64,000 bases of DNA from Ginglymostoma cirratum. Its lineage: Eukaryota. A model generated the notes under the pieces. The model was not told the DNA's origin, made no database searches, and saw nothing but the letters and a program-made list of their open reading frames with translations. The stretch's first letter is position 1. Every line of letters begins with the position of its first letter. The stretch lies in assembly GCA_024137785.1 (NCBI GenBank), contig JAHRHZ010000062.1, positions 25,584,533 to 25,648,532 on the forward strand. The letters are read 5' to 3'. A program made the translations under genes and the position numbers. This document shows, piece after piece, positions 5,789-64,000 of the stretch.

Positions 5789-6102
5789 TTAGAATGCCAG
5801 ACGCATATTTTTTTCCATAAATTCTCTTGTTTCTGGGTGAATAAACTCACATCTGATTCCTATCCCATTATCAGATTCTACTGGTGTAAATTCTATACTT
5901 GTTAGAGATGAGAAGAGACCATTTTCAGCAACTTCAGGCTTAGTATAAGCCACCAGACCCATGAAGGGTTCCTCTCCTTTAAACCACCTAATTTCAATTT
6001 CTTGAGGTGCATAATCAGTCAGTGAAACGGTGAAAGTTGCCACTTTGTTTTTCTCTGGTTTCACTGGGTTACATTTGATTTCCGACAGAGTGGGAGGGGA
6101 AC
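5789..6102 (-). CDS. Gene A exon 10 (terminal coding): post-TM C1-like domain 6
   Basis: Acceptor ttctgttttaag|GT. SPPTLSEI..ATFTVSLTDYAP..IRWFK..NGLFSSLTS..IRCEFIHP..LAF then TAA at 5791-5789. B-strand Cys replaced by Val. Confidence 0.88.
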
Positions 6103-30100: not shown

Positions 30101-33100
30101 ATGAAGCTCAAGTTCTTGTGGAAGGATGTTTTGAGGTTACCTAATAGTTAAATGAATGAACAAACAAACAAATCTAGTTAGGAATCCTGGATTGTTTGAG
30201 ATAATCCAGAATTAATATAAAAATATTAACAATGCCGATTTCAACCACCTTGGCTTGATGATGAACATCTAAGTTACATCCAAGAATGAAATCCAGGTTA
30301 CATCAGCTAGAGTTAGAAGCATGACAAAATTACATAAGTAGTATCTTAAATCCAAATGCATCAACATGATGCTGAAAAAGATCTTGCAGTCAATAGTGCA
30401 AAACATTGCACTCTAAGGGATGTGAAAGGTTGATTCTGAAGAAAGAAGACGAGAGGAAGATAACAGCTTTTGAAATGTGTGGCAGAGGATACTCAGTCAG
30501 TTGGAAGGATACAAAGAAAAGTGATTGAGTTAGATCAAGAGTAGAAGTTCAAAAATCTAAAAGGGCTGTTAATCAGAATTAGAGGGAGAAAGATTGACAA
30601 GTACAGACTTTGGAAACAAAGACACTGCGGCCCTGAACTGAAGCAACTGGAGAAATTAAGCAAACAAAAAAGAAAGGCAAAGAAGAAAGGCTGAATAGAT
30701 GGCTGCTGTTGAAACATGAGGGAAGACTGAACAAAGGCAGAGAGGAAGCAAGACGTTAATCAATATTTGCGGTAACATTATGATGAAAATGAACCAGTAA
30801 TTAACAACAAGGCATTGTCCCAGCTTAGATGGTATACTGGCAATATTGACCAAGTTCTAAAAGGTATGGGACCAGATTTTGCTGCTGTGCGGAATTTTAA
30901 AGCATTTCAAAGACAAGTTTGCTGAGGTATGATCAGAAAACAATGCTGCAAAGAAAGAGTAACTGGGATATTAGTCCAAAGCAGAACAAACACCTTATTT
31001 CTCTAAACAATGAGAATTAAGGATTGAGAACAAAGTGAGAAAGGACAAGGAAGGAACATGAAACAGCCTGGGTTAATTGAGTGTCAAATCAAGTTAAGGA
31101 AGAAAGGTTTGATACAGAAAGGTAGGACTTATACAGTAAATCCTGTAGATCCTCAGGAGTGTTGTGGAACAGAAGGGTCTAGGAGTACAGGTACATAGTT
31201 TGTTGAAAGTGGCGTCACAGGTGGACAGGGTGGTGAAGAAGGCATTTAGCATGCTGGCCTTCATCGGTCAAGGCACTGAATGTGGGAGTTGGGAGCTCAT
31301 GTTACAGTTGTGTGAGTTGTTGGTGAGGCCGCACTTGAAGTACATAAGTACTTAACTTCCGTACAGTTTTGGTCTCCCTGTTATAGGAAAGACATAGTTA
31401 AACTTGCAAGTGCAAAAAGAAGATCTACAAGGATGTTACCAAGACTAGTAGGCCTGAGTTACAGGGAGAAGTTGGCCAGGATAGGACTTTATTCTTTGGA
31501 ACATAGGAGAATGAGGGGCACAGATAGGATGAACGCATATAGTCTTTTTCAACTAGAGGGTATAGGTTTAAGGTGAGAGGGGAAAGATTTAAGAAGGGCC
31601 TGAGGAGCAACTTCTTCATACAGAGACTGGTGTGTACATAGAATGGGCTGCCAGAGAAAGCAGTTGAGCCAGGTACAATAGCAACATTTAAAAAGCATTT
31701 GGATAGGTACATGGACCAAATGCGGACAATTGGAACTAGCTGAGTGGGCACCATGGTCAGCATGGACCAGTTTGAGCCAAAGGGCCTGTTTCCATGCTGT
31801 ATGACTCCATGACTCTATGACACTAAAGCATCTGAAAAGATAGAAAAACAAAGGCAAAAACATTAAGATTTAAAATTTTAAAAACAACCTAAAATAACTA
31901 TTCACAATCAGAAGGAATGAGAGATCACACTAATGAGTGCCCACTTACTAGGGCAGACAGCTTAATTGCCAGTCCTTAACAATAATCTTACTGTTAAAAT
32001 CTACTTATGCTGATTATTAGAATTAACTTTCTGTGGTAAATTTAACAGATAATTAGTATTTAAGCACAGCAAATTCATGGAAATCATGAGAAGGTTAGCA
32101 TTTTTACAAAACTAATCACACAGCTGGGGAAAAAAATCAACTAGCAACTTGTATTGGTTCTCAGTTCACAGGATGTAACTTCTTTGCTTCAAGTTGATGG
32201 TTAATTTACGTTTGTCAGCAAAAGCTCCCTTTTCCTTCTAAGCAAAGTATGGCCCATTGCTACAATTGCTCCTGACTATTTGGAAAGCCAACAGAAGTTA
32301 TGTACTTATGTAGGGATATAGGGCAAGTTTGAAAGGGAAGTGAAACGTTTAACCAAGCAAATGGCAATTTCTTTTCATGTAGCTAAAAAGAGAAAATCTC
32401 ATGACACACAAATTATTTTAAATGCTTTACCACTACAATAGCGCTTTTCAAAATTGTCGAGTGTCAAACTTGTGGAAAGGCAACACATCTTACACAATAG
32501 GAATTACTGAACCACTCAGGACTCTTTTGGTGATATCTTTCTTTCAAGTTTTTTCAGAAAGCTTGATAGGCTATAACTATCATCAAATATTTTGTTCAAG
32601 CATTGTTGAAAACCAAACTTGAAACTCAGTTTTGGAAAGCTGTTAATTGTGGAAAACTTTAAATCAAACTTGATACAGCCATCAAACTCCATAAGCACAA
32701 CTTTCAATAGGGTTTATTCAGTTAGTATAAATTTCAAATTATTACCAAAACAGGGGCACTGAAGTTTCAGTTTAAAAATGGACCAAATAAATCCACAATT
32801 TCAAATTTAAGCACAAATACCATTCAGTTCAAAATTCCCCTTTGCCTATTTCATCAGTGCCACTAACCGTAAACCACAGAATAATTTCAAATGACTACGT
32901 TAAACCTTCATGTGTAATAACAGAGTAAAATTTCTGTGTTCTTTTTGTAGCTGCATTTTCTAACATAAACCAGGCTTCATGTACAAGTTCACGAAAACAT
33001 TAAACATACCTTTGACAGTCAGTTGGGCTTCCAGTTTTAAATCCTTATTAAGTGATTGGTGTTTTACATAGCAGATATAAATATTGCCACTGTCTTCAAG

Positions 33101-36100
33101 GGTTGGTCTCAACCTCAATCGGCTGGAAACGCTGTAGGTTCCATTTTCATGTTGAATTGGGGATCCTGTGCAGATGTGTTTTGAAAGCATTTGTTCCTCG
33201 TTTTTTGTTTTCTGTATCCAGCCCATCTCAATTGAGACAGGATAAAAATCAACACTGTCACATTTCACTGATTTCTCCGTACCATGTTCAATTGTGATTG
33301 CAGTTGAAGATAAGCTTACCTTGGGCAGGGCTGCAAATAACAATATATCAGATGTTTAATATTTGACGTAAGTATTCACCTGTTCACATCCTCTGGTTAT
33401 GTAATGATTGCACAGATTGAAATGTCTGGTGTTCAAAATATCCTTTCCTCACAGCTGTCCTCTCTCACTGCTCCTTTTATTCCTGTTGCTTCATGGTCCC
33501 ATACAACTTTGTCACCGGTCTGTCTGCTCTCAAAGGCTGGTGACAGGCTGTTGACTGATGTATTCTGTTTTGGATACTCCAGTTTGCTCCAAAAAGTAAG
33601 ATTTTCAAGAGATAACTATGCTTTATTAAAATTAATATTTTAGGAGACATGGTGGCCCACTAGAATTGAAAAGTATCGATGTACTGGGTTCTGTTCTAAT
33701 ACATGCTTTGGTTGTGCTGTCACCTGCCCTTTTGCAATGCTGTATACTTATCTCATCAAAAACCTCCTGCAATCAGGATGAAGGCTGAACACACAAGTGT
33801 TGCTCCAGCTGTCAACATTGCACATTTCTAGCCTTGTAGCTAGCCATGCTGTGCTGTCTGTAATTCATACATCTTAACTGTTCTGAAAAAGCCAACTACT
33901 TACTAACTGACAAAGGTTTCAGTTCACATCTCCTTTGTCACTAACTTCTCCAAGATCAATTTTGAGAACAAACATATTTGTGTTGTTTGACTGCCCTTCT
34001 TTCATAGTCCATCACAAAGTAGTCCTGTGGATCTGAACGCATTATCTAGAGGCAGAGAAAACAGGAATAGAGAAGGCAACTAATGACTTGTTTCATTGAG
34101 CAAGTGGTCCTTCAGCTTCCCGGTCACTAGAGACCAATAACTTAATGTTCTGATAAACATACCATGGCCTGACTGGCATGGGACTTCTGCCTAATAGCAA
34201 CACAGTCTAACCAATATCTAATGCCTGTCAAGCAGCAGCAAAGTGAATTCCTTCTTTGCTCAACTGGGGGCAGATGACACATTATGGTCTAGCAAGCATT
34301 AAGCATACTCACATCTACAGCTACAACTTTGTCAAAGCTCAATATTGCATGGCTCAAACAAAAACCCCAACAGCCATGACTGTGGCCAATGTGCTACATG
34401 CGGCAAATACAATGGACAGCACTGCACTAGATTGCTCATAGTCAATGATACCATCTGCACACAACTATTTTCATTTTAAATTTAATGCACTCACAATTCA
34501 GCAGACAATAAGAATCAGGTAGTGGCTCTTACCTGAAACAGTCATTGATGACTTTCCACTTCCATTGTCTGGGGTTATGAAAACAACACAAGTGTAGTCT
34601 CCCGCTTCAGAAAATTGCACACTTGGAAGAAAAAGGGAAGCTATTCCTTTCTTCAAATGATCATCAACAATTGTGGCTCCTTTTCTGTATGGTATATGTT
34701 TGCCAGCAATGAATTGATAAACCTCTCGTTTCTCTGTATCTAGAGAGCCTGATTTTTGGTAGAACCAGTGGACTCCCATGTTTTGAAGGTCAATTTCTCT
34801 TCTGAAGTCAGAAACTTGGCACTCCAGAACAACATCTTCATTTACAGTGGCTTTCACAATTCCTGAATTCATCGACACAATTAGGTTACCTTGTTCTGCA
34901 ACAATCAAGATCAAAATTATCAGTATAGATAATTCATCCAGCAGCCCAACTATTTTGATAAAGATGCTATCAGAACAATATATATCTTGAACATTAAGTC
35001 CTGAATCGACTGAAGTATTGCTATCATTTCAACAATTCCATCAACATCCTGCATTTGTGGAACACCTTCGACAACAATAATGCACCAAGCATTGCAGGAA
35101 AAAAAACACTAGAAGTTCAATGCTCAGCCAAAACAGGAGCCTAGATGATGTCAAAAGATTGTATGAAGGTCTTCATAAAACAAATGAGGCCCAAGTGGTG
35201 TATTCTAATGTCATTGGACTAGTAACTCAAAACCGAGATATGGGCATATCTGGCTATGCTAGAATTATTTGCCTAGAATTATTTGTCACCAGACCTGAAA
35301 CGTTAACTCTGTTTTCTCCTCCACAGATGCTGGCAGACCTGCTGAGCTTTTCCAGCAACTTTGTTTTTGATTTACAGCATCTGCAGTTCTTTTGGTTTTT
35401 ATCTGCGTAAAAGGGTTCAACTTCCATCAGTGCAGATGGTCCAATCTGAATTTCAATAGAAGGAGGAATTAAAAAATAGCTCTACAATAAAATTCAACCA
35501 CTGCTAATAACTGTGAAAAAACACACTGGCTCATTAATGTCATCTAAGGAAGGATGCTGCTGTTTTTACTTGCTCTGGCCTACATGCGACTCCAGACACA
35601 GAGCAACTCTCAAATAGGCAAATAATTCTAGCCTAGCCAGATATGCCCATATCTCAAGGATAAAATTTAAAACAAAGGTATAGATAAAAACGTGGAAGTA
35701 GACGGTCTTTGGCATGAAGAGAAAATGAGGTCAGAATTCCAACTTGGGATCAAACAGGACACTGCAATTGTAAATAGGATGGCTGAAACTGAGAGAATCC
35801 AACTAAGATAAAGGTGCCTATACTGCAGTGGGGGCATGGGGGCATGATTTTCAGTTTAAAGAAATTTCAACCTGTTTTTGATTGAACTGGATGTCAGACA
35901 AGCAAGCTGAGGGAAAGTGGCAGAGTTTGAAGGGAGGTGGTGGTGGTGGTGTCAAGCTGGGTGTGATTGGTGTACATGTAGACAAAGATAGTATGTCTTC
36001 ATTATATATCACCTCGGCACCATATAGTTGAAAATAAGGTTAGACCAAGGATAACTCCTCAAATATCTCCAGGGGCAAAGTTGGACAGATGTCATGACTT

Positions 36101-38155
36101 TTATAGCCATTTTGAGAAGAGAACATTGGCAACAAACATTTCCTGATCAGCATAAAGATGCTAGGTGCTTAGATACGAAGGGTAGCTGCTTTCCCTATTT
36201 CCATCTGTGTTCCAAAGAAAAGTATCTAGTGACAAAGCAGCACTTGGTGAAAATTATACCTGCTGGAAATTGTAACATTATCAACATAATATTTGCCCGT
36301 CAAAACTGGGGGCTTCCACAAGCAGTGAATACATTGTTTTGGAAAGGGTGCAGAGGAGATTTACCAGGATGTTGCCTGGTATGGAGGGAAGGTCTTATGA
36401 GGAAAGGCTGAGGGACTTGAGGCTGTTTTCATCAGAGAGAAGAAGGTTAAGAGGTGACTTAATAAAGACATACAAAATTATCAGAGGATTAGGTAGGGTG
36501 GACAGTGAGAGCCTTTTTCCTCGGATGGTGATGGCTAGCACGAGGGGACATAGCTTTAAATTGAGGGGTGATAGATATAGGACAGATGTCAGAGGTAGAT
36601 TCTTTACTCAGAGAGTAGTAAGGGCATGGAATGCCTTGCCTGCAACAGTAGTAGACTCGCCAACTTTAAGGGCATTTACATAGTCATTGGATAAACATAT
36701 GGATGATAATGGAATAGTGTAGGTTAGATGGGCTTCAGATTGGTTTCACAGGTCGGCACAACATCGAGGGCCGAAGGGCCTGTACTGCGCTGTAATGCTC
36801 TATGTTCTATGAAGAGAAAATTAAAAGAAAGCAAGCAATAGAAATAAGATATTCACACAACTCATTAAATTGGCTGCCTTGCATTTTCATGTTGTTTAGC
36901 TAAGGAGAGAGGCTGCAGGAACTCAGGTTATTACCACTGCTGCAGGGAAGGCTGAAAGGAGACCTAAGCGAGATATGTAAGATTGTGCGGGACAAGGACA
37001 GGGTGAACAGAAAGCAGCCATTGCCCTTAGTTAAAAGGTCAATAATAAGGGGGTGTGATTTTAAGGTGACAGACAGGAGGCTTAGAGGGAGTTTGGAGGT
37101 ATTTTCTCTCACCCGGAGGGTGGTGGAAATCTGGAATGCACTGCACGGCAAGGTAGTTGAGTTGGGAAACCTCAAAAGTCTTTAAAAGGTACATGGATAA
37201 GCTCTTGAAATGTCATAACATTGAAGGCTGGGGGCCAAGTGATGGTTTGGGGAACTAGTGTAGACTTAGAGTAGTCTTTCTTTGGTGCAGACTCCATGGA
37301 TCTCTAGTGTACAGTATGATTCCACAACCCTGTATTAAAGCAGGCTGTGCCCAGTTAGCTGATGGGGCACTGGGTCAGAACCTCAGATCAGGAGCTATGG
37401 AGTGAGACCAAGATCCTACCAGTGGTCAGTGCCCAGCTGTCCAACAGCCCGTGCATGGCAGAATAACGACATATATTTTTGAAAGGGATAGCAGGAACTG
37501 CCGATGCTGAAGAATCTGAGATAATAAGGTGTAGAGCTGGATGAACACAGCAGGCCAAGCAGCATTAGAGGCGCAGGAAAGCTAACGTTTCAGGTCTGGA
37601 CCCTTCTTCAGAAAGAAAGCCCTTTTTCTGCAGAAGGATCTCGACCCGAAACGTCAGCTTTCCTGCACCTCTGATGCAGCTTGGCCTGCTGTGTTCATCC
37701 AGCTCTACACCGTGTTATATCATATATTTCTGAAACACGTTATTCAAACTAATGTCATTTCCGTAACGAAAGTAGAAGCAAAATAGGTACAATTGTATTT
37801 TAAAAAGCGCAGAAATGCTGAAGGTCACTGGCCCCGAAACATTAATTCTGTTTTCTCTCTCCAGATGGTGAATTTCTGAGTTTCTCCAGCTCGACGAAGA
37901 ATTTAGGCTTTATTTAGCCAATTTCAAAACAAAACATATTAAATAGAGGCCTTGGATAGGAAATGCCCATCTCATGTTTTACACCCGGAGAAAATTCACG
38001 GGCAAAGTACAAAGGCGGAACTTTTGCACGCAGCATTCCCGAAGCCGGCCGAATGGCCGCTCCCCCTATCCCCGACCTTTACCTGAGTGCGGTACCAGGG
38101 TCAGCAGCACTAACACCAGGACCTGAGGCAGCAGCGAGCTCCTCACCGGGCCCAT
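5789..38155 (-). CDS. Gene A (spliced, 10 exons, ~980 aa): B7-H6/NCR3LG1-like type I membrane protein, SP-IgV-IgC1-TM followed by six C1-like Ig domains
   Basis: Exons 38155-38083, 34895-34533, 33330-33010, 25017-24901, 23676-23248, 20426-20049, 19044-18733, 14524-14201, 7287-6976, 6102-5789. All introns are GT..AG and phase 1; lengths 73+363+321+117+429+378+312+324+312+314 = 2943 nt give one open frame ending TAA. The V and first C1 resemble human B7-H6 from recall. No symbol given because orthology is untested. Confidence 0.85.
6976..7287 (-). CDS. Gene A exon 9: post-TM C1-like domain 5
   Basis: Acceptor tttccaaacag|GA, donor CCAG|GTGTG, 312 nt; extends ORF 6878..7168 upstream. GIPVVSDI..LVLKCHVKNF..ARW..SGYYQLFSSMELTP..IVFEVMH; F-strand Cys replaced by Phe. 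Confidence 0.88.
7560..8500 (-). mobile_element. Degraded CR1 ORF1 remnant (Zn-finger/zipper + SGNH-esterase-like)
   Basis: HIC..C..ELDCELWTLRHIK (8268..8477) and IQDIFSGLERNL..IVVVHICVN (7808..8017) resemble shark CR1 ORF1p. Confidence 0.6.
9678..9912. repeat. Palindromic repeat (second subfamily, GCTGGAAAAGCTCAGCAGG type)
   Basis: Arms GAAGTTGCTGGAAAAGCTCAG..TTCCTCAG / CTGAGGAA..CTGAGCTTTTCCAGCAACTTC. Related copies or half copies near 1055-1150, 5380-5610, 12415-12510, 35290-35400, 59000-59225 and 63251-63445. Confidence 0.75.
9930..10247 (+). mobile_element. CR1 3' end
   Basis: FKVRG..FFTQRVDCMWNKLPEEVV remnant and CR1 3' UTR ending CATGCTGTATGACTATG. Confidence 0.75.
10520..12170 (-). 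mobile_element. Old degraded CR1 fragments
   Basis: Degenerate 3' UTR and RT remnants (e.g. minus-strand YSPVSMMS near 11870); boundaries approximate. Confidence 0.55.
14201..14524 (-). CDS. Gene A exon 8: post-TM C1-like domain 4
   Basis: Acceptor ttctgttattacag|TG, donor GGAG|GTATG, 324 nt. ATIICHAYGFFP..MWF..EFKVEVLH; F-strand Cys replaced by Val. Confidence 0.9.
14700..15150 (-). mobile_element. Degraded CR1 3' fragment
   Basis: Minus strand FFTQRVVRLS-type remnant and CR1-type 3' UTR. Confidence 0.6.
16190..17230. mobile_element. Two abutting degraded CR1 fragments (+ about 16190-16890, - about 16890-17230)
   Basis: ORF 16991..17179 LGLHVHRSLKA..RGIEYRNRE (minus); plus-strand YEDRLSRMGLYSL at 16449. 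Confidence 0.65.
18733..19044 (-). CDS. Gene A exon 7: post-TM C1 domain 3
   Basis: Acceptor tttttttccacag|CT, donor TTAG|GTAAGT, 312 nt. ASCRIYSFFP..VIW..DGLYYFTSRF..LTCEFQHES; both Cys present. Confidence 0.9.
20049..20426 (-). CDS. Gene A exon 6: post-TM C1 domain 2
   Basis: Acceptor aaacaaag|TT (weaker pyrimidine tract), donor ACAG|GTACT, 378 nt. VTCPITGFKP..ITW..YICEVTHP; both Cys present. Confidence 0.87.
22735..23010 (+). mobile_element. CR1 3' fragment
   Basis: LNRLGL..TRGH..FTQRVACVWNELPEEVV. Confidence 0.7.
23248..23676 (-). CDS. Gene A exon 5: post-TM C1-like domain 1 with long polar insertion
   Basis: Acceptor tcttttatag|TT, donor GGAA|GTAAGT, 429 nt. VPPKVS..LMNCQISGYRP..IRW..NNDGS..ILQVQVHH; the F-strand Cys is replaced. 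Confidence 0.87.
24901..25017 (-). CDS. Gene A exon 4: transmembrane exon EPEVVVPVGIITGCVILSILACTAIAGIGFFVYLKYLKK
   Basis: Acceptor ttttacctacag|AG, donor AAAG|GTAAC, 117 nt, phase 1/1. Long hydrophobic run followed by basic stop-transfer KYLKK. Confidence 0.88.
25530..25860 (-). mobile_element. tRNA-derived HE1-type SINE
   Basis: Minus GGCACGGTGACTCAGCGGTTAGCACTGCTGCCTCACAGCACCAGGGAC..GGTTCGATT, V-type core, tail GATTCTATGATTCT. Confidence 0.85.
26190..29410 (+). mobile_element. Old, heavily degraded long CR1 copy (ORF1 esterase, endonuclease and RT remnants)
   Basis: Scattered CR1 remnants (QPEVV-type ORF1 segment near 26300, EHLVDSD near 27390, VEIAEVLAIIFQ at 28085, QHGF at 28293, 3' end near 29300); no intact ORF; boundaries approximate. 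Confidence 0.65.
31115..31822 (+). mobile_element. CR1 3' fragment
   Basis: ORF 31164..31355 LGVQVHSLLKVASQVDRVVKKA..LVRPHL; tail ATGACTCCATGACTCTATGA. Confidence 0.85.
33010..33330 (-). CDS. Gene A exon 3: extracellular IgC1 domain
   Basis: Acceptor tttgcag|CC, donor AAAG|GTATG, 321 nt. C1 hallmarks C..DFYP..W..NGTYSVSSRL..YICYVKH; both Cys present; NGT sequon; ICTGSPIQHENGTY resembles B7-H6 VITGPTIKNMDGTF. Confidence 0.92.
34533..34895 (-). CDS. Gene A exon 2: IgV domain, B7-H6-like
   Basis: Acceptor ttgattgttgcag|AA, donor TCAG|GTAAG, 363 nt. DVVLEC..MGVHWF..REVYQF..YRKGATI..LKKGIASLFLPSVQFSEAGDYTCVVFITP parallels recalled B7-H6 ([52 protein letters not shown]). Both Cys and the Trp are present. 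Confidence 0.92.
36336..36811 (+). mobile_element. CR1 LINE 3' end
   Basis: ORF 36339..36683 LERVQRRFTRM..RGRFFTQRVV; tail CTCTATGTTCTATG. Confidence 0.9.
36895..37330 (+). mobile_element. Degraded CR1 3' fragment
   Basis: LQELRL..LKGDL..TRRVVEIWNAL remnants. Confidence 0.7.
37488..37720. repeat. Penelope-derived palindromic repeat
   Basis: GATAATAAGGTGTAGAGCTGGATGAACACAGCAGGCCAAGC ... GCTTGGCCTGCTGTGTTCATCCAGCTCTACACCGTGTTAT inverted arms of about 90 bp. Confidence 0.8.
38083..38155 (-). CDS. Gene A exon 1: signal peptide MGPVRSSLLPQVLVLVLLTLVPHS
   Basis: Not in the ORF track. ATG in strong Kozak context (gccATGG), 24 codons + 1 nt, hydrophobic core VLVLVLLTLV, donor TCAG|GTAAAG, inside the only CpG-rich patch of the window. 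Confidence 0.85.
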
Positions 38156-45931: not shown

Positions 45932-46531
45932 AGAGATAAAAGGTACTGCAGATGCTGGAGAATCCGAGATAACAAGCATGGGGCTGGATGAACACAGCAG
46001 GTCAAGCAGCATCATAGGAGCAGGAAAACTTGACGTTTCGGGCCTAAACCCTTCATCAGAAAAAAGGTTTAGGCCCGAAACNNNNNNNNNNNNNNNNNNN
46101 NNNNNNNNNNNNNNNNNNNNNNNNNNNNNNNNNNNNNNNNNNNNNNNNNNNNNNNNNNNNNNNNNNNNNNNNNNNNNNNNNNNNNNNNNNNNNNNNNNNN
46201 NNNNNNNNNNNNNNNNNNNNNNNNNNNNNNNNNNNNNNNNNNNNNNNNNNNNNNNNNNNNNNNNNNNNNNNNNNNNNNNNNNNNNNNNNNNNNNNNNNNN
46301 NNNNNNNNNNNNNNNNNNNNNNNNNNNNNNNNNNNNNNNNNNNNNNNNNNNNNNNNNNNNNNNNNNNNNNNNNNNNNNNNNNNNNNNNNNNNNNNNNNNN
46401 NNNNNNNNNNNNNNNNNNNNNNNNNNNNNNNNNNNNNNNNNNNNNNNNNNNNNNNNNNNNNNNNNNNNNNNNNNNNNNNNNTATGATGCTGCTTGACCTG
46501 CTGTGTTCATCCAGCCCCATGCTTGTTATCT
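45932..46531. repeat. Penelope-derived palindromic repeat spanning an assembly gap
   Basis: Left arm 45932-46060, right arm begins 46065, is cut by N run 46082-46481 and resumes 46482-46531; flanked by AAGATTGTTATGA on both sides (about 45920-45932 and 46532-46544). Confidence 0.8.
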
Positions 46532-52485: not shown

Positions 52486-52778
52486 TCAAGTTAATTTCAG
52501 AGTGAAATATCTGCTGATTGGGTCCATCTCAGTGATAATATCAACTTGGAAGTGACAATTATCATCTTCTTGCTTTGGTGTGTAAGTTAATGCAGTGGTG
52601 AAACCTACACCAGTTTCAAATGATTTGTTTTTAATGCAGTTGGTTTCATCTAAAGGGTAAATATCTTTGTACCAAGTGATGTGCGAGTCTTCTAAAGCAG
52701 ATCCCGTAACGGTGCAGGACATCGTTACAGGTTGGCCAGCTTGAGGATGTGGAGTCTTGCAAGTTATCTGTGATACCC
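52486..52778 (-). CDS. Gene B terminal exon: divergent Ig domain
   Basis: Acceptor ataattttacag|GG. VSQITCKTPHPQAGQPVTMSCTVTG..ITWYK..TALTYTPKQEDDNCHFQV..FTLKLT then TGA. A minus-strand AATAAA lies at 52392-52387. Confidence 0.8.
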
Positions 52779-55700
52779 CTGTAAAATTATAGGGTGGAAT
52801 AAAAATTGAGATAGGTAAAACTCTTAATAATATAACAAATATATAGATTTTACTTTAATTACGAGAAGGAAAACAATGATATTCAATAGATTCAGCAGCA
52901 CTCTGCATTCCTACACATTCCTACTGCATTCCTACAAGAAGGAATCCTGTTCTTCAAACTGGGAAAACTGAGTGTGAGATTAAGATGTTGTTACCTCACC
53001 CCAGATGAATAGTTAAAAGCCACATGACTAGAATTTATTCATCTGGGCAAAAATCATGGGTTACACAAAAAAAAAGGGCATGTTTCCAACATGAGAAATT
53101 TTTACTAAATTTGAAACAATTATGGAACATAATATACTTTGGGAAGTGACAAAAAGAGAGCTGCAGAAGATATGGAGGATAGTTAGCATGAAATCATCTA
53201 TTAAGCAAAAGGTCACTTCATGGCACAAAATGCTTCAGTCACCTCCAGGTCAGTAAGGTCCAAGAAGATTGTGCATTCATGGCTATCTACTATATAACAA
53301 CAGCTTCCACTAGTTGTATTAAAGTCTATAAATTGGGAGAAAGCATCAGTAGTCAGTTAAGTCCCAAAAACTGAAATATGCCATTTCAATGTGAATGTAG
53401 CTACATAGATTCTGACTAAAGCACTTTAGGTGATACAGCCAACAAGTTAGAAGCACAACATGAGATCCATTACTACTGTTTCCGCTAAAACTGATGAGTA
53501 CCATTTTAAAGAGTCTTTTTCTTTTATTTGTCTAGATATACCTTTAAGTATGATTTCAGTGCATCCAGACTTGTAGTGTAGAAACGAGCATTCATTTTCT
53601 TTCTCCCATGCATCAGGGCAGAGACATCCATCAGAGACTGCATGTGAGGGGAGTGCATTGAGCAATGAACAGGTCACACATGCAGTGAAAAGTTACTGTT
53701 ATATGGATCAGGATTCCTTGACCCTTTGCTCAAAGCCAGAATAATCTAGCAGTTCAGTTTTAAATTGTGTGCAGATATAAGACAAGTTCAGAATTTGAAC
53801 TGGAGAACTGTGTTGCCAACTTCTGAATGAACGCCATATACAAGTTCACTGACGACACCACAGTAGTGGGACAGATATCTAACAATGATGAGTCAAACAA
53901 CAAAAGGGAGATAGAAGGCTTGGTGACGTGGTGCAATGAAAACAATCTGTCTCTCAATGTTGGCAAAACTAAAGAAATGATCATGGACTTCAGAAAGAAA
54001 GGAGGAGAACACACCCCATCTACATCAACAGAACTGAGGTTGAGAGGGTGAAGAGCATCAAGTTCCTCGGAGTGACGATAACCAACAACCTGACCTGGAC
54101 TTTCCACTTGGTCGTGACAGTCAAGAAGGCACGACAACACCTGTTCTTCCTCAGGCAGCTCAGGAAATGTGGCACGTCCATAAGGTCCCTCACCAACATC
54201 TACAGATGCACTATTGAAAGCATACTATCCGGGTGCATAACGACCTGGTATGGCAACTGCTCTGCCCAGGACTGTAAGAAACTACAGAAGGTGGTGTGCA
54301 CAGCCCAGACCATCACGGAAGCCAGCATTCCATTCATGGACTCCATTTACATGGCTCACTGCTGCAGAGAGGCTGCCAACATCAAAGACCCATAGCACCC
54401 CGGTAGTAAACTCATACAACCTCTTCCATCAGGCAGAAGATACAGAAGCCTGAACATACGTACGAGCAGGTTCAGGAACAGCTTCTTCCCAGACGCTATT
54501 AGCCTGACGGATAGACTCTCTAGCCTCAAATAACGCTGATCTTGTTAAAACTGATCTCGCCTAGCACACACCCTGTGCAATGTAACACGTATGCCTCTGT
54601 CTAAGTCTTTTTAATCTGTACATCCTTTGCTTACTATGATCTGCCTGAACCGCTCATAAACAAAGCTTTTCATTGTATTTTGGTACATGTGACAATAAAT
54701 AAATCGATTATATGCACTGTAGGCCACAGTGAAATATTTAGAGTCGGGCCAACATACTAGAGACCACGGTAGCAGTCAGCAGTTTCCTCATGGTTGCTTA
54801 GTTTGCTTCAATAGTGCTGTTGGGTATCAGACTGGGGAGGGATTTGTTATACATTTTTATTCTTCCCATTATTACTGTTAAGTCTGCTTTCTTGCAGACC
54901 AGTGGCCGTGTACAACCATGACCCTTTCTGGTACCATGACCATGACAGTTCAAACGGGTAGCAAGAGATGCATATCTTCCTGCAAGCCACTGATTAATTG
55001 ATTGATTGATTAATTTATTGTCACGTGTACCAAAATACAGTGAAAAGTTCTGTTTATGAGCGATACAGGCAGATCATAGTAAGTGAAGGATGTACAGATC
55101 AAAAAGACTTAGACAGAGGCATACAGGGAACAAAGCGATAATGAATACAGTACCAAACCAGGGAGCCTACAGCAGGTCCAAATCAGAGACTTACTGCCTA
55201 GCTGATAAATTAAGCTGCATTTACTTCAATGCAAGTAGACCGACAGGTAAGGCAGACAAGCTCAGAGCACAGTTGGGAAGATGGGACTGGGATATTACAG
55301 CTATTATAGAAATGCGGCTCAGGGATGGACAGAACTGGCACCTCAATGTCCCGGGTAGAGATGCTATAGGAAGGACAGAAATGGGGGCAAGAGAAGTTGG
55401 GGGGGGGGTGTTTTTGGTTAGGGATAACGTTACAGTTGTACTGAGGGAGGATATTCCTGGGAGACTGGCAGTGAAGTATATGGATGGAACTTTAAAAAAG
55501 AAAGGGATGATCACCTTGTTGGGATTGTATTATAGGGCCCCCAGCAGTCAGCAGGAAATTGAGAAGGAAATATTCGACATCTGTAAGAATAATAGGGTTT
55601 TAAAGGTAGGATATCTGAACTTTCCAAACACAGACTGGGACTGTTAAGGGCTCAGATGGGGAGGAATTTGTTAAGTGTGTACAGGATAACTTTCTTATTC

Positions 55701-58700
55701 AGTAGGTGGATGTACATACGAGAGAAGGAGCAATACTTGCCCTTCTGGTGGGAAATAAGGCAGGGCAAAGTAGAGGTATCAGTAGGGGACCACTTTGGAA
55801 CAAGTGATCATAATGATATTAGCTTTAAAATAGTTATGAAAAAGATAGAACTAATCATAAAGTTAAAGTTCTAAATGGAGTAAGGTCAATTTTGACTGTA
55901 TTAGATAGGAACTTTCAAACGTTGATTGAGAGAGGCTATTCGAAGGTAAAGGGTAAGTTCGGAAGTGGGAGGCCTTTAAAAATTAGATAACGAGAGTTCA
56001 GAGACAGTATGTTCCTGTTAGTGTGAAGGGCAAGGCTGGTAAGAGTAGGGAATGCTAGATGACCAGAGAAATTGAGGCTCTGATCAAGAAAAAGAACGCG
56101 GCATATATCCGGTTATAGACAGCTGGGAATGAGTGAATCATTAGAGTATAAAGGAATATACTTAAGAGGGAAATCAGAAGGGCAAAAAGGGGACAGGATG
56201 CAGCTTTTACAAATAGAGTTAAGGAGAATCCAAAGACATTCTACAAACATATTAAGGGCAAAAGAGTAACTAGGGAGAGGATAGGGTCCCTTAACAATCA
56301 AAATGGCTGTCTGTGTGTGAAACCACAGGAGATTGGCGAGATGCTAAATGAATATCTTGTATCATTGTTTACTGTGCAGAAAGTCATGGAAGCCAAGAAG
56401 CTTGAGGAAGTAAATAGTGACGTCTTTGACAAGTGTTCATGTTACAGAAGAGGTGGTGTTGGAGGTGCTAAAACATATAAAAGTTAGATAAATCCCTGGG
56501 ACCTGATCAGGTATTTCCCAGAATTTTGTGGGAAGCTAGGGAAGTGATTGCCGGGCCCCTTGCTGAGAAGTTTATATCGACGACAGCCATGGGTGAGGTG
56601 CAGGAAGACTGGAGGTTGGCTAATATGGTGCCATTATTTAAGAAAAGCTGTAAATAAAAGCCAGGGAATTAAAGACCAGTGAGCTTTACCTCAGTGGTGG
56701 GTAAGTTGTTGGAGGGGATTCTGAGGAATAGGATTTAGATGCACTTGGAAAGGCTAGGACTGATTAGGGATAGTCAACATGGCTTTGTGCATGGGGGATC
56801 ATGTCCCACTAACTTGAATGAGTTTTATGAAGTGGTAACAAAGAAGATTCATGGAAACAGATTGGTAGATGTTGTTGTGACTTCAGCAAAGCATTTGACA
56901 AGGTTCTGCACAGTAGACTGATTAGTAAGGTTAGATCACATGGGAAACAGGATGAGTTAGTCAATCGGATACAAAATTGGCTTGAAGGTAGGAGACAGAG
57001 GGTGGTGATAGAGAGTTGCTTTTCCGACTGGAGGCCTGTGATCAGCGATGTGATCGGTGCTGGGTCCACTGCTTTTTGTAATTTAAATAAATGATTTGGA
57101 TGAGAATATAGGAGGTATGATTAGGAAGTTTGAGATGATACCAAAATTGGTGGTGTAGTGGACAATGAAGGTTATTTCAGAGTACAATGGGACCTTGATC
57201 AGATGGGCCAATGGGCTGAGGTATGGCAGACGGAGTTTAATTTAGGTAAATGTGAGGTGTTGCAGTTTGGTAAGCAAAACCAGGGCAGGACTTATACACT
57301 TAATGGTAGGGCCCTATAGACTGTTGCTGAATAAAAGAGACCTAGGCGTGCTGGTGCATAGTTCCTTGAAAGTGGAGTGGCAGGTAGACGGGGTAGTGAA
57401 GAAGGCACTTGGCATGCTTGCCTTATTGGTCAGAGCACTGAGTGTAAGAGTGGGATGTAACGCTGCAGCTGTACAGGACATTGTTGAGTCCACTTTTAGA
57501 ATACTGTGTACTATTGTGGTCACCCTTTTGTAGGAAAGGTGTTGTTAAACTTGACATGGTACAGAAAAGATTTACAAGGATGGTGCTGGGACTGGAGGGT
57601 TTGAGTCATAGCGAGAGGTTAAATAGGCTGGGGCTGTTTTCCCTGGAGCATCAAAGGCTGAGGGGTCAATTTATGGAGGGTTATAAGATCATGACGGGCA
57701 TGGATATGGTGAATAGGTTAGGTCGTTTTCCTAAGTTGGGAGAGCCCAAAACTAGAGGGCAAAGGTTTAAAGTGAGAGGGGAAAGATTTAAAAAGGACCC
57801 AAAGGGCAATGTTTTCCACACAGATGGTGGTGTGTGTATGGAATGAGCTGCCAGAGGAAGTGGTGTAGGTGATTACGAGTAAAGCATTTAAAAAGCATCT
57901 GGATGGGTATATGAATAGGAAGGGTTTAGAGGGATACGGGCCAAATGCTGGCAAATGGGACTAGGTCAGATTGGGATGTCTGGACAAGTTGGACAGAGGG
58001 TCTGTTTCTTGTTGTATGACTATGTCTCTATAAATAGTTCACATTAGTACAAGATCCAGCTAACTCCCACCACCTTGTTAATTAGGCAGCACCTGGATCA
58101 CTACAGGTACATGTATGTACACACTTTACAAGTTTTGATTAAAACAATGGTGGCATTGAAGTTGTGTGCTATTCCTTCTCATTCTTGGCTAAACATGGAA
58201 AAGGTCATTACTTCCACAGGTGAGCAGATGTCATGGGTTTCCACTGTACACTCACTAACCTGATTTCCTTTCCCTAACAGGATTCTTACAAAATTAAAAA
58301 TATGTCGTGCCTTTTCTGACATGATAGATTCATGGCAAATTACAGAGAATAAGGCATTAGGAACAGCAAACTATACTCTATCCAAAATTACTGAAGAAAT
58401 AAGAATATTCGTGTTTGGCATTTTTGTCTTTTTCCCAGCAGCTAGCAACCCTCGACAGTAACTGTATTTGAACACAGGTACAATTGTGTGTAATTAGGGC
58501 AGTGATGAAGAAAACGGGATGCTGGATTGCATCACATCATCCCTGCTTCACTTTAAAGGACCACCCATTAGATCCATTCTAATAGCCAGAAATGAAGACA
58601 GCACTCCTCTCCATCGGAAATGTTATATCTAGATTATTTTGTGCATAGTCTGAAATCCTACACTGACATCACTATGGATTACAACCAAACATGCACAAAA

Positions 58701-61700
58701 CAAAAACTTTCAAGATGGACACTTTACCTTCATCTTTTGGTAGATTTGAATAAGGCGATTCTTCATTTTCAATACCTGAGCACAGAAAGAGTTAGTTAAA
58801 TGAAGTACATCCTTAGAATATTGGAGTATTAAGTAACTCTTTTAAGAGTAATGAATCCGAAGTCATCACAAATTAACTATTCTCAGCAACAGCAATAAAA
58901 TCTGTTTATCGACATAAAGTTTCAATGTCAAGTAAACATTCAAATGAATACACTGGATTCAAGTAACTCAACGTGACAATTATAACATTGTAATGAAATG
59001 AAAACCAAAAGAACTGCAGATGCTGTAAATCAGAAACAAAAATTGCTGGAAAATCTCAGCTGGTCAGGCAGCATCTGTGGACAGAAATCAGAGTTAACAT
59101 TTTGGGTTCAGTGGCCTGTCCTCAGTTCTGTGAAAGGGTCACTAGACCTGAAACATTAACTCTGATTTCTCTCCACAGGTGCTGCCAGACCTGCTGAACT
59201 TATCCAGCAATTTCTGTTTTTGTTTGTGATTGTGATGAAATGCTTTGTTCTCAACTCATCTCTAACAAAATGGCACTCACCTTTAAGGAATAACCAGTAA
59301 GTTTTCTCTTGAACTTCTTTTGTTGCTGGATGCGACACCTCACAGCTGATGACACACTTATGATCCTTCTCAGTTACAACAAATTCTGTGCTTGTAACTG
59401 ATGAGAAAAGACCATCCTCCGCAATTTCAGCAGGTTGGTTAATCACTTCTGAACAAGGTGTCTTGTTTTTAAACCACCTTACTTTGACTGCAGCAGGAGC
59501 GTATTTTGTCAATGTAACACTGAGTGTTAGTTTCTGATTAACTTCAGGAGAATTTGGATCAACATTAATAGAAGACAAGGTAGGAGACAAAGCTGAAAAA
59601 CAAATAAAAGATTTATGAATATTTGGCTATTGAAGCAAATTCATTAATCTTCAAGAGGAACAATATAAAACGAAACTAAATGTACATTTATGGTCTGCAA
59701 TGTAGACAACATCTAGGAAAGAAGAATTAATGATCATGTTCAAAAGATTCTTTTGAAAACAACACTGATCTTAGAAGTAAAGATAGTGGTAGGGTATTTC
59801 AATATACCACTTTATGGCAGCAGTGAGAGACATTTTTACCTATAAATATCAAAGGAGCTCCCAAAGAATAAAGTTCACTGCATTAACACACACAGAAAGT
59901 ACTATCACAGAAAAGACAGACCAAATAAAACCTGGATTCAAAAATCATAATATTAATTATTTTGTCCAACTTGTATTAAGAAGATCCATATTAAAAGTTA
60001 TTTTTCAGAAGACTGACGAACTGAGGCAAAAACAAAAATGTTCAGAACTTCTATGATTTAGTTTCGATCAATGGAATTACTTCAAAAACTGAATTTATTT
60101 GGATATATTTTTAAAACAGTGAACATAATGATCTCATATCAAATATCCTTCTTTTATGCATCACCAGTTAAGGTTTCTTCTACAATCTGTTGAATTCTTG
60201 AGAATTATGGAGTTATTGAATTCCAATTTGCTCGCTGTCATTTATCTTGAAATAGTTTGTTTCATGCCATTCCCCTATCTCTAATGATGAAATCAAATTA
60301 ATTCTCTTTGACCTAGTCAGCCACAATTAACAATGACTTGGAACTTTTCAAATTTTATAAAGAAAAGGGTCATGGTAAAACCTACCTGGAAGTATTAAAA
60401 CTGTCCTTTTTATAACTGGAGCCTTTAATTTAATATGGCACACTTGGAAAGAAAATTCTTGATTAAAATTTACTGCAGTTGGTATTATTCGTAACTGAGA
60501 TGTCACAGAAAAGCATCCATCTTTCTCCTTCACAGGTCCTTTAACTGTGATTCCCTTGACTACCCGGTTGCCATTTTGTTGCCAAGCTGCATCAATGTCT
60601 TGTGGGAGGAAGTTAGTGATGCGACATGTCATAGTAAGGTAACTACCATATTTGGCTTCTGGTGGGTCAAGTTTGATATCTTCAACGTATGGCATTCCTG
60701 TTGAAATTGAATGAAACCACAAGTGATTACAAACCTTATAGCATCATGTTTAAGCATCATCAACAAATATTTGAACAGCTGTCTCCCCAGCCTTTCCCAC
60801 CAAAACTTGGTTGGTGAAACGGAACATGTCACAAATCTACCATTCTGTAATGTGGGCCCTTCCAAAGAAAATAATGAACTTTCAAAATCTTTATGATACA
60901 AGAAGTTTAAGCTGCGACTAACAAATCAGAAGCAATGATGGAATACCACAAATTAGGGCCAAAGGAGCCACTAAAATGGATTTGGAGGTCACTGGCACAC
61001 AAGGAATGTCAGTGAAAACACTCTCCAGCCGGTGTTGAATTCATCCTCAAAATAAAAGCAATGTCATCTTCCTGTTAGAGAGGGTATTGCAGCATTTGAC
61101 CAACAGTAGAAACATCAGGCGGAATCTTAGATGGGTCTGAGTGACATGTGCAATGGTGAGTTGTGTAGCAGAATCAGGCAAGAAGTTCAATGAGGGACAG
61201 TCGGGTGCAGACTTGATGGGCTGAATGACCTCCTTCTGCACTGTACGGATTCTATGAATCTATGTTGTTGTTTGAGGTTAACAGTTAGAGAAGTAAAATC
61301 ATAACACAGCAGATGATTTTACGGCATTTAAAAAAAACCTGGAAATGTGATTTTTGTATTCCTCACAGTTTGGGAAGTCTTGGAGACATCTTTGTTCTGG
61401 GATTTAGAATAAAATTAGTTTAAAAGTACTTAGTGAATGCTGGAAGATTGTGAAACTCATTCACATTAAAGAAGAAACTTTAAATAAGGTATCATTAATC
61501 CTGAACATGTTAAATTATTATGCAGATTGGTGGTTCTTAGCAAGATTTTCTGGTTTCAACTTAATTGACTCTTTGCTAGTTGCAGATTGGATTTCATGTG
61601 GTTTATAGCTCACTAAGAGATGATAGCCAAAATAGATGACACTTAGACAGATCTGCACTCTAAACAGAGTATAAGCTAACACGATCATTCACGTATTTCG

Positions 61701-62955
61701 GAGTGGGGATGGCTTAATCTCAACTTGGACTTCATGGGAGAACAGAAGATGGAAGATTGAGCGGCTTGAAACGAATGGAAAATCTACAATGGTCCCTTGG
61801 AAATTTTGTGTTACAAAAGGGAAGAACAGCTTAGCTTCAGAGTAATGAAAAGTAGAATAAGGGACTGATGCATCCTTGGTCAAGAGAAGGTAAATTAATG
61901 TTTTATTGAGGAGAACAGCTGAAACCAAGAAGACATTTCCAGAAAGCTGAGGCTTACTTATCAGTGGTCCCTACAGAAGTAAATAACTTTAAAGATTGAT
62001 TAATCTCAGAGGATAATTCCTAAGGGCAATAAGAAGTAAACTGGAGTGCACAATATACATAGTTATAAAACATTGTCATGTCTGCTTTGTTTAATTTGTT
62101 CCATATAAAATTTGCTTTGTTGGTTTGTGTAAAAGTGAAATCTTGTGATATATTCTACGGTACAGTAGCTCAGTGGCTAGCACTATTGCCTCATAGCACC
62201 AGGGACCCAGATTCAATTCCAACCTTGGGTGACTGTGTGGAGTTTACACATTCTCCCCACGTTTGGGTTTCCTCCGGATGCTCCGGTTTCCTCCTGCAGT
62301 CCAAAGAGGTGCAGGTTAGGTGGACTGCCCATGCTACATTGCCCACAGTGTCCGGGAATGTGCAGGCTGTGGGGATCAGCCATGTGAAATGCAGGGTTAC
62401 AGGGATCGGGTAGGGTCTGGGCAGAAGGGTGGGTATGGACATGATGAACCAAATGGCCAGCTTCCACATTGTAGGGATTCTATGAAATGGATCACTAGAC
62501 CTAACTTAATGGACTAAACAACCTTCTTTACAAAAAATAAGTCAACTTAATGAACTTGAAACATCTGTCCATTCTAAATAATGTTTCAACATTCTGTAAT
62601 TGCTACGCTGAAATCTTGTTGGAACCAGGCTTACCAAATATTGTCAAAACATGACTGGATGAGACAGGCTTATTTGAAGTCCCAGTGTGAAGAATTTGCA
62701 TTTTGAACTCTTTTCCGTGGTCCACGTAAGTTGGAGTGAATGTCCTTTTGGACCATCGAGAGTACGACCCAGATGATCCATCGAATACAATGTCACCCAT
62801 TTCAATTCCACCTTCAGTTTTCTCAAACCCTTTGAGCCAGAATATTTCGTTGTCTTTTGGATAGAAATCGTAAGCTTTACAGAAAAGGGTTACAGGTTTT
62901 CCTACCTCCGGGTGAACAGGATCAACTGTAACTTCTGTTAGCTTTGGTGCTAGTA
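52486..62955 (-). CDS. Gene B (5'-partial; last four exons): multi-Ig C1-like paralogue of gene A
   Basis: Exons 62955-62635, 60697-60386, 59592-59281, 52778-52486; GT-AG, phase 1, ending TGA. The first three align one-to-one with gene A exons 8-10. The 5' part lies beyond 64000. Confidence 0.82.
53810..54705 (+). mobile_element. Rex1/Babar-clade LINE 3' fragment
   Basis: KFTDDTTVVG..WC..NNLSLNVGKTKEMIMDFRK / KFLGV..YRCTIESILSGCITTWYGNC are typical Rex1/Babar RT C-terminal motifs; 3' end GTGACAATAAATAAATC. An inverted copy of this 3' end sits at about 55010-55130. Confidence 0.85.
55200..58030 (+). mobile_element. Degraded near-complete CR1 ORF2 (APE endonuclease + RT)
   Basis: CIYFNA..WDITAI..LYYRAP..NFPN and HFGTSDH (endonuclease); SQHGFV..SCPTNL and QKRFTRM (RT); many stops and frameshifts. 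Lies in the last intron of gene B. Confidence 0.9.
59281..59592 (-). CDS. Gene B exon: C1-like domain, paralogue of gene A exon 10
   Basis: Acceptor tgtttttcag|CT, donor AAAG|GTGAG, 312 nt. PTLS..TLSVTLTKYAP..VRWFK..EIAEDGLFSSVTSTEF..ISCEVSHP. Confidence 0.9.
60386..60697 (-). CDS. Gene B exon: C1-like domain, paralogue of gene A exon 9
   Basis: Acceptor atttcaacag|GA, donor CCAG|GTAGG, 312 nt, the same length as A exon 9. Ungapped alignment, 37/104 identities by my hand count. Confidence 0.9.
62156..62484 (+). mobile_element. tRNA-derived HE1-type SINE
   Basis: TAGCTCAGTGGCTAGCACT..GATTCAATTCC head; GATGCTCCGGTTTCCTCC core; GGGATTCTATG tail. Confidence 0.82.
62635..62955 (-). CDS. Gene B exon: C1-like domain, paralogue of gene A exon 8
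   Basis: Acceptor tttgtctgcag|TA, donor TTTG|GTAAG, 321 nt. PEVGKPVTLFCKAYDFYPK..EFKMQILHTGTSNKPVSSS versus A PEAGKEATIICHAYGFFPK..EFKVEVLHFPTSHKPSRSS. Confidence 0.9.
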
Positions 62956-63150: not shown

Positions 63151-64000
63151 NNNNNNNNNNNNNNNNNNNNNNNNNNNNNNNNNNNNNNNNNNNNNNNNNN
63201 NNNNNNNNNNNNNNNNNNNNNNNNNNNNNNNNNNNNNNNNNNNNNNNNNNGTTGCTGGAAAAGCTCAGCAGGTCTGGCAGCATCTGTGAAGGAGAGGACA
63301 GAGTTACCGTTTTGTGTCCGGTGACCCTTCCTCAGCGGTGACCCTTCCTCAGAACTGAGGAAGTGTCACCCGACCTGAAACGATCACTCTGTTTTTTCCT
63401 TCATAGATGCTGCCAGACCAGCTGAGCTTTTCCAGCAACTTTGTTATTGAATATTGTGAGGCCATTCAAGCCTAATTTTCCACATACTTGGAGGTTGGAT
63501 TTTGTAACGGTGGCATCATGGTTCGTTTTGCGAAGGGGTTATAAAAACTAAATTAGGTATGACAGTCCTTCCAAAACCGTGATATAACCCAGTATATGTC
63601 AGACAGGCAGGGACCCGAGGAGTACCAATTGATCTTTGTATGCACTGTGCTGCTTTAGGACACAGAGCTTAAGTATTGAAATTATTTCAATGAAGCTATA
63701 ACCTTTTTTTTATTCTACCTCACCAGAGCTTATCATTCAAAAAGGTTCTACCCAAGTCTTTCTTTCTTATTTTTGTTTGCAATTATTTTGGGCTTTTGTT
63801 TTAATTCTTGTATTTTTAAACAACAAAGAATATCAAATGGAATAGATTTCATAGGCAGCAAACCAAAACAACTGCAATTTCCTCAGGAACTGAAAATAGA
63901 GGCAGAGGATGGCCATAAGTAAAAAGCTCATTTAGAGAGTTATTATACATTAGAATACAAGAATGATTCAACGAAGTACAGCACTGAGCCACAAAAGATG

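Follow-up and report, generated by a model that had tools for sequence, protein, structure and literature searches.

The last exons of a nurse shark B7-H6 gene encode part of a probably cytoplasmic array of C1-type immunoglobulin domains

Positions 52486..62955 of the window, i.e. the whole 64,000-nucleotide stretch of nurse shark (Ginglymostoma cirratum) DNA analysed here, hold the last five coding exons, on the minus strand, of shark B7-H6 (NCR3LG1; gene B below), which belongs to an old tandem cluster of at least four paralogues. In our main reading, to which we assign a probability of about 0.6, the seven C1-type domains of its tail are most likely cytoplasmic and would provide a surface ligand, putatively binding NKp30, with a docking and sorting scaffold. 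C1-set domains are a hallmark of antibodies, T-cell receptors and MHC molecules, and to our knowledge they are known from outside the cytosol. Six to eight such domains behind the membrane of an NK-cell ligand, in an order kept across jawed vertebrates, point to a signalling or trafficking module, while the surprise is limited by gene B having already been deposited and named.

Gene B is the named B7H6 gene and not a secondary copy. It encodes exactly the protein of the nurse shark B7H6 record (QTT61906.1, UniRef100_A0A8A9WSM4, 1092 aa), letter for letter and including the tail, with 1091 of the 1092 residues tiling onto 12 genomic exons and the remaining one falling in a split codon. The protein consists of a signal peptide, a V domain, a C1 domain, a single membrane helix and a tail of about 800 residues made up of seven tandem C1-type domains (D1 to D7). 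A leaderless all-Ig protein, considered as one outcome in the sequence-only reading, is ruled out by the signal peptide, V, C1 and transmembrane (TM) segments found upstream of the tail. A fusion of B with the neighbouring paralogue A into one long gene is ruled out by B's own stop codon and 3' RNA cover, and A's own signal exon 14 kb further on also speaks against it. The features of gene B in the region are the following.

62635..62955 (321 nt), minus strand: exon of C1-set domain D4, Met in place of the F-strand Cys; D4-D5 junction in RNA
60386..60697 (312 nt), minus strand: exon of C1-set domain D5, Phe in place of the F-strand Cys; D5-D6 junction in RNA
59281..59592 (312 nt), minus strand: exon of C1-set domain D6, Val in place of the B-strand Cys; D6-linker junction in RNA
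58728..58775, minus strand: 48-nt acidic linker exon with the tyrosine motif SPYSNL; linker-D7 junction in RNA
53447..53637, minus strand: alternative acceptor after the linker exon; two RNA reads in run X13 and one contig in X2
52486..52778, minus strand: final coding exon, with the divergent Ig domain D7 and the stop; RNA cover beyond the stop codon

The exons of gene B are of phase 1-1 throughout, and the claim that frames and splice sites are intact is borne out by the open, AG/GT-bounded exons of D4, D5 and D6 and by spliced RNA. The description of the introns as filled with transposable elements held for a part of them only, since 65%, 49%, 20% and 0% of the four introns is repeated elsewhere in the region examined; of six intronic ORFs tested, one matched RVT_1, weakly and below the cut-off. 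All four exon junctions are spliced in RNA, including those of the linker exon, with 23 reads in X13 plus contigs in X2 and X3 for D4-D5, 15 reads for D5-D6, 10 for D6-linker and 6 for linker-D7, and RNA cover runs on past the stop codon. The alternative acceptor, absent from X3, would replace D7 by a 62-residue non-Ig tail. The TM-to-D1 junction is based on the deposited protein and database models. Gene B is thus intact and transcribed, and not a silent copy with disabling mutations upstream. The exon list of the sequence-only reading lacked the fifth coding exon (58775-58728).

Gene A, also on the minus strand, shows a corresponding organization.

38083..38155, minus strand: signal-peptide exon, matching the whale shark orthologue P0014 at its N-terminus
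34533..34895, minus strand: V-set domain exon, FG loop TPDN, not TPLK
33010..33330, minus strand: extracellular C1 exon, both cysteines retained
24901..25017, minus strand: transmembrane exon, basic residues after the helix
18733..23676, minus strand: tail domains D1 (23676-23248), D2 (20426-20049) and D3 (19044-18733)
5789..14524, minus strand: tail domains D4 (14524-14201), D5 (7287-6976) and D6 (6102-5789, ending in a stop)

The D4, D5 and D6 exons of gene A are the counterparts of those of gene B, and the proposed pairing in order was found again, i.e. B 62955-62635 (321 nt) with A 14524-14201 (324 nt), B 60697-60386 (312 nt) with A 7287-6976 (312 nt), and B 59592-59281 (312 nt) with A 6102-5789, whereas B D7 (52778-52486) is without a counterpart in A. 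For the middle pair, 36 of 103 residues are identical without gaps (35%), close to the roughly 36% counted earlier by hand. When all C-type domains were compared with one another, the A/B pair of the same position scored highest at seven of seven positions, and in the domain tree D4, D5 and D6 of B group with those of A, so that domains group by position rather than by gene. Between A and B, dN is about 0.6 and dS about 1.6-1.8, i.e. near saturation, which is consistent with the purifying selection that had been proposed. The suggestion of a gene family with an old duplication likewise stood: there are at least four tandem paralogues, and by the tree the A/B split is older than the chimaera-shark split. 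A duplication within sharks and rays was rejected by the tree and by the AU test (p 1.1e-5, for a group named after the tree had been seen).

The Pfam C1-set cut-off was passed by 11 of 13 tail domains, i.e. D2-D6 of B and D1-D6 of A; B D1 had no Pfam match, and B D7 only weak generic Ig matches. D1-D6 are predicted to form beta-sandwiches (pLDDT mostly 70-89), while D7 is poorly modelled (pLDDT under 50). A fold search with the whole model returned only generic multi-Ig matches with titin on top, and an Atlas search generic C1 clusters only.

As claimed, A and B lack the same cysteines, i.e. the F-strand Cys of D4 and D5 and the B-strand Cys of D6. Within the gene B tail the canonical B-F pair is present in D2 and D3 only (2/7 domains), and D1 retains neither of its cysteines nor the core tryptophan; in D2 and D3 both cysteines are kept in 20/20 shark A/B proteins. 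The losses are not family-wide, gene C retaining both cysteines in D1 and D6 and 3/3 frog proteins having the D5 pair. That they predate the A/B duplication was correct, but they are much older than had been supposed, being common to chimaera, coelacanth, reedfish and salamander in D4, D5 and D6; they most likely predate the shark/bony-vertebrate split too.

The tail domains are conserved to bony vertebrates at 27-35%, about as much as V and C1 (35-37%), and 74 among the best 150 profile matches show V-C-TM followed by at least three C1-like domains. Full-length gene B orthologues were found in seven of the eight other shark species that came up, and in chimaera. When shorter, amniote-type relatives were sought with the V-C1 part of P0001, 0 of 2222 candidates passed, and therefore the trees contain no amniote protein.

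Since the seven C1-type domains come after a single predicted membrane helix, the tail of gene B most likely lies in the cytoplasm, in a type I topology. One hydrophobic segment follows C1 in 20/23 shark proteins and is absent in 3/23, and the net charge after it is positive in 23/24 proteins. N-glycosylation sequons number 55 in the ectodomains versus 40.4 expected, a modest excess, and 106 in the tails versus 106.3 expected. The canonical cysteine pair is present in 23/23 extracellular C1 domains versus 57/149 tail domains. Cysteines of the tail would have been lost since the cytosol does not allow disulfides to form, although the retention in D2 and D3 is not explained by a purely cytosolic history.

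Within such a scaffold, an acidic dileucine motif in the D1 loop is predicted to control internalisation and thereby set the surface level, the linker tyrosine to recruit an SH2 protein, and each domain position to retain its own partner surface. A strict dileucine motif occurs at the equivalent place in 11/24 proteins, a count taken without a chance control, and a Y-x-N/D-L/I motif in 5/24, all of them shark B.

The same cytoplasmic tail might instead be mainly an oligomerisation module, pairing through its C1 domains in the manner of antibody Fc or MHC and so bringing ligand molecules together, with a gain in avidity for NKp30. C1-set domains, to which those of the tail belong, are the class that usually pairs, conserved domain order and number are what in-register pairing would require, and D4 ranks with the best-conserved domains when shark orthologues are compared (71-93% in A). 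However, tail length is flexible, with many gene A orthologues ending after D4 and Hemiscyllium B lacking D5-D6, and the D1 loop and the linker tyrosine exon are left unaccounted for, so we regard this as unlikely.

Rather improbable is an extracellular or secreted form of the array, in which skipping of the TM exon would fuse V-C1 directly to D1-D7. Every exon is of phase 1-1, the TM segment is indeed missing in P0019 and P0020 (gene A isoform X2, two sharks) and in P0011 (partial), and the D2 and D3 cysteine pairs are kept; yet the deposited B7H6 and most shark proteins carry the segment, 92/149 tail domains are without the pair, and the tails show no sequon excess. A secreted form may exist as a minor isoform. 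Less probable again is a tail that acts inside the cell as a decoy for, or sensor of, viral proteins stripping B7-H6 from the surface. Herpesviruses are reported to down-regulate human B7-H6 (PMC6514059), tails vary among paralogues and lineages, and the human one is Gag-like (PMC2715080), but domain order and cysteine pattern are stable across jawed vertebrates, and tail conservation is near that of the ectodomain where an arms race predicts fast turnover. That gene B is a decaying duplicate, as the losses in its D1 might suggest, is hardly credible and is refuted by the intact 1092-aa frame matching the deposited protein and by spliced RNA, and further opposed by the full-length orthologues and the same losses in distant vertebrates.

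Turning back to the scaffold of a surface ligand, the ectodomain of gene B has the signal peptide, distal IgV, proximal IgC and single TM of B7-H6. In the PDB it matches human B7-H6 best (E 2.7e-32, V and C1 only), and the whole protein scores 115 bits to human B7-H6 versus 69.5 for CD276; with V alone, B7-H6 gives the highest single-domain score, while the two-V CD276 comes first by summed score. Seven of the 11 NKp30-contact residues listed for human B7-H6, which include the FG loop T127-P128-L129-K130 (PMC3135353), are identical in gene B in this alignment, TPLK included, and the FG loop of the shark V domain would be a candidate NKp30-binding site. Most B orthologues do not retain the Leu (TPEK and others). 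Because the human contact loop is kept in gene B alone, A, C and D being without its Leu and Lys, these three are candidates for binding other NKp30 subtypes of the shark. This bears on the co-evolution of NKp30 and B7H6 that a 2012 paper, going by its title, reportedly proposed.

The paralogues, at least the four named A, B, C and D, form a tandem cluster near RPS13. RPS13 and a PI3-kinase (PI3Ka) exon lie 0.26-0.37 Mb beyond it, i.e. within 0.4 Mb, and a KCNJ11-like gene is on the same contig, about 10 Mb away and not adjacent; the human gene list has RPS13, PIK3C2A, NUCB2, NCR3LG1 and KCNJ11 in a row. Database searches returned no named record for A, C and D of the nurse shark genome.

The Ig array would have been fixed before jawed vertebrates radiated; duplications of whole genes would then have split off the C-type first and separated A from B next. 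It is tentatively conceivable, though we would not favour it as a whole, that B7-H6 of the jawed-vertebrate ancestor worked both as receptor and as ligand, its signalling module being a fixed-order cytosolic C1-set array in which each domain had its own partner, that C-type and A/B-type had split before the shark/bony-vertebrate split, and that in the human line a retroviral Gag domain replaced the array. C1-set domains, regarded as working outside the cytosol only, would in that case have a second role inside the cell, as old as adaptive immunity.

Human B7-H6, which natural killer cells recognise as a ligand of NKp30, has 454 aa and a Gag-like cytoplasmic domain (PMC2715080). It shares with the shark protein the type I V-C1 ectodomain, the FG-loop TPLK, the nearby RPS13 and PI3-kinase gene and an ITIM-like tyrosine motif in the tail. 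It differs in length and tail, gene B, present among at least four copies, having tandem C1-set Ig domains and no Gag-like domain there. Because relatives across jawed vertebrates bear an Ig tail, the Gag-like tail is a feature of the human protein and not of the B7-H6 family, which suggests that it is a derived state. Literature listings showed no publication that deals with an Ig tail of B7-H6 in the cytoplasm, though it may already be described in Flajnik 2012, Ohta and Flajnik 2015, Ohta 2019 or Kinlein 2021 or in their supplements.

The shark protein also resembles V-C1-TM-(C1)n proteins, as yet uncharacterised, from chimaera, coelacanth, reedfish, lungfish, frogs (one record being named NCR3LG1) and salamander; layout and domain order agree, and so, for the most part, do the cysteine losses. 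They differ in having eight tail domains in coelacanth, reedfish and one lungfish protein versus seven in shark B, and in being without a counterpart of the linker tyrosine motif. Transmembrane receptors with intracellular Ig domains have reportedly been described. Titin-type cytoplasmic proteins also carry Ig domains in tandem, many of which lack the disulfide; these are, however, I-set domains of soluble or cytoskeletal proteins, whereas those of the shark tail are C1-set and follow the membrane helix in an immune ligand.

Gene B is already deposited and named: a search with its D4 exon (D1 to D7 being the C1-type tail domains, numbered from the membrane helix, TM) gave a 100 % match to QTT61906.1, i.e. 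B7H6 of Ginglymostoma cirratum, whose 1092 residues tile on 12 exons, 1091 of them directly and the remaining one through a split codon. Contig C62, which carries the window, belongs to a 4.36-Gb genome, and beyond the window, where the sequence-only reading had suggested looking for SP-V-C1-TM, gene B has D3, D2, D1, a TM exon, C1 and V upstream of D4.

Within the window, the three gene B exons described earlier are present on the minus strand (321, 312 and 312 nt), open, AG/GT bounded and in phase 1, in line with the claim of intact frames and splice sites. The ungapped identity of the middle pair, put at about 36 % by hand, is 36/103 residues (gene B middle exon versus gene A 7287-6976), and when all C-type domains were compared, the same-position A/B pair scored best in 7/7 positions, which bears out the claimed domain order. 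The cysteine losses are also the same in both genes, i.e. D4 and D5 are without the F-strand cysteine, D6 without the B-strand one. The description of the introns as TE-filled holds only in part, repeated sequence making up 65, 49, 20 and 0 % of the four. Further features are:

58775-58728, minus strand: 48-nt gene B linker exon, overlooked in the earlier reading
52778-52486, minus strand: last gene B exon, seventh tail domain, no gene A counterpart
2203-3141, 39243-40136 and 43939-44409, minus strand, and 55087-57843, plus strand: degraded open frames, which we take to resemble LINE reverse-transcriptase fragments (one weak RVT_1 match, below the cut-off)
46082-46481: run of N, 400 bases, outside coding exons
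63151-63250: run of N, 100 bases, outside coding exons

All four junctions inside 52486..62955 are spliced in the poly(A) RNA-seq run X13 (23, 15, 10 and 6 reads) and appear in contigs of runs X2 and X3, which are RNA by our guess. An alternative acceptor at 53637, which lies after the 48-nt linker exon and opens the segment 53447-53637 (minus strand), had 2 reads in X13 versus 6 for the main junction and occurred in one X2 contig (depth 50 versus 97), and was not seen in X3; judging from the sequence, its use would swap D7 for 62 non-Ig, cysteine-containing residues.

The claimed gene family was recovered on counting, with four V exons, each of them on the C62 minus strand, and hence at least four genes:

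Gene D, C62:25.82-25.84 Mb (loci L018-L019), minus strand: V, C1 and TM, plus a candidate signal exon
Gene B, C62, minus strand: V, C1, TM and seven tail domains
Gene A, C62, minus strand: six tail domains
Gene C, about 7-28 kb beyond the window start (loci L038-L040), minus strand: V, C1, TM and D1-D6

In gene C, D1 and D6 each retain their two cysteines. The gene groups with P0043 of a sawshark and P0051 of a lungfish and has a stop codon directly 5' of a splice-donor-like GT; no signal exon was found for it. Gene D is closest to the database protein P0059, whose tail consists of D1 repeats, and among related proteins Heterodontus P0037 has seven D1 repeats, whereas Callorhinchus P0104 and Chiloscyllium P0144 have long non-Ig tails. 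The suggested synteny check placed RPS13 0.37 Mb and a PI3-kinase exon 0.26 Mb past the V exon of gene D, and a KCNJ11-like gene some 10 Mb further on; a table in PMC3826498 gives the human order RPS13, PIK3C2A, NUCB2, NCR3LG1, KCNJ11 in a row.

Relatives of gene B occur in eight other shark species and of gene A in ten, and V-C-TM followed by at least three C1-like domains was found in 74 of the best 150 profile-search hits, a named subset of which (n=20) includes chimaera, coelacanth, reedfish, bichir, lungfish, frogs and salamander. In the per-domain phylogeny, a quick tree built on 103 columns for 84 domains of 11 proteins, with many of its forks open, there is a single group each for ecto-C1, D1, D2, D3 and D5, D4 groups in 10/11, and D6 splits into an A/B-type (96) and a C-type (98) group. 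A second tree, of 25 proteins (V, C1 and D1-D6; LG+G4; without gene D and the short-tailed forms) and rooted by choice on the C type, joins the chimaera protein to B and a lungfish protein to C, both at 100/100. Shark and ray A and B as one group without the chimaera protein, a grouping chosen after the tree was seen, was rejected (p 1.1e-5). Together with this rejection, the placements date the A/B split to before the divergence of chimaeras and sharks; they also date the origin of the C type to before the divergence of sharks and bony vertebrates, more than 400 million years ago. Tail length varies by whole exons (among P0010, P0019-P0023): Hemiscyllium B is without D5-D6, and gene A models end after D4 in Carcharodon, Cetorhinus, Heterodontus, Scyliorhinus and Mustelus. 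Reedfish and frogs also have more distant proteins of the V-C-TM-(Ig)n layout that are longer (P0073, P0122, P0127; 1400-1800 aa) and may represent another family with an Ig array inside the cell.

In shark A and B proteins, the cysteine loss is seen in 20/20 D4, 13/14 D5 and 14/14 D6 domains, and both are kept in D2 and D3 of 20/20. All three losses are common to chimaera, coelacanth, reedfish and salamander; both D4 cysteines are gone in a B-like lungfish protein, the D5 pair is present in 3/3 frogs, and C-type genes keep the D6 pair. This distribution probably puts the D4 and D5 losses before the separation of C from A/B, with the D6 loss characteristic of the A/B line, so that the proposed origin before an old duplication is upheld. 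Genes A and B share codon-position identities of 54, 59 and 41-44 %, and dN of about 0.6 against dS of 1.6-1.8 agrees with the claimed purifying selection, as a rough measure with dS near saturation.

The seven-domain tail would lie behind a single membrane helix on the cytoplasmic side. The protein starts with a signal peptide and has a single hydrophobic segment, and in 23/24 proteins compared the net charge after this segment is positive; sequons are enriched in ectodomains (55 versus 40.4 expected) and not in tails (106 versus 106.3), and the canonical cysteine pair is present in 23/23 ecto C1 versus 57/149 tail domains. We favour, at a probability of about 0.6, that gene B is an NKp30 surface ligand with a cytosolic domain chain, in which each domain position would have its own partner. 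Tail and ectodomain are conserved to about the same degree, and AlphaFold predicts beta-sandwiches for D1-D6, even where the cysteine pair is missing (the D7 model is unreliable). That the tail domains instead pair C1 to C1 and so cluster the ligand is a doubtful alternative. Some points count against the cytoplasmic placement: TM is absent from 3/23 shark proteins, all exons share one phase and the D2 and D3 cysteines are kept, so that a secreted isoform may exist; the same points speak for a mainly secreted product, which we consider unlikely. Four database models (P0019, P0020, P0011, P0040) join C1 straight to D1, without TM, and are possible secreted isoforms. A tail serving as viral decoy is still less probable, and decay of gene B, spliced and open as it is, can practically be dismissed.

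For the favoured cytosolic chain, two candidate signals are of note. In D1, residues 346-372 form a loop that is modelled with low confidence and contains an acidic dileucine-type motif, found at the equivalent place in 11/24 proteins in strict and 14/24 in looser form (raw counts, without a chance baseline). The linker exon encodes SPYSNL, which fits the ITIM consensus; a related motif occurs in 5/8 shark B proteins examined and 0/16 others.

A literature search at listing level found no paper on the Ig tail of B7-H6, an earlier description being possible, and the B7-H6 passages of PMC13262535 and PMC6514059 do not mention it; parts of PMC12227049, PMC10751288, PMC10450919 and PMC12272517 and one table row of PMC7071772 were also drawn on. 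Added here are the history of the paralogues, an age for the cysteine losses and the finding that the NKp30 loop is confined to gene B. Human B7-H6 is the best PDB match of the gene B protein, over V and C1 only, and of its NKp30-contact residues (Table II, PMC3135353) gene B shares 7/11, TPLK among them, where gene A has TPDN, gene C PPND and gene D TPES. Since TPxK is the usual form among B-type relatives, the leucine may match by chance. The human tail, as described in a passage of PMC2715080, differs in carrying its ITIM within a Gag-like domain.
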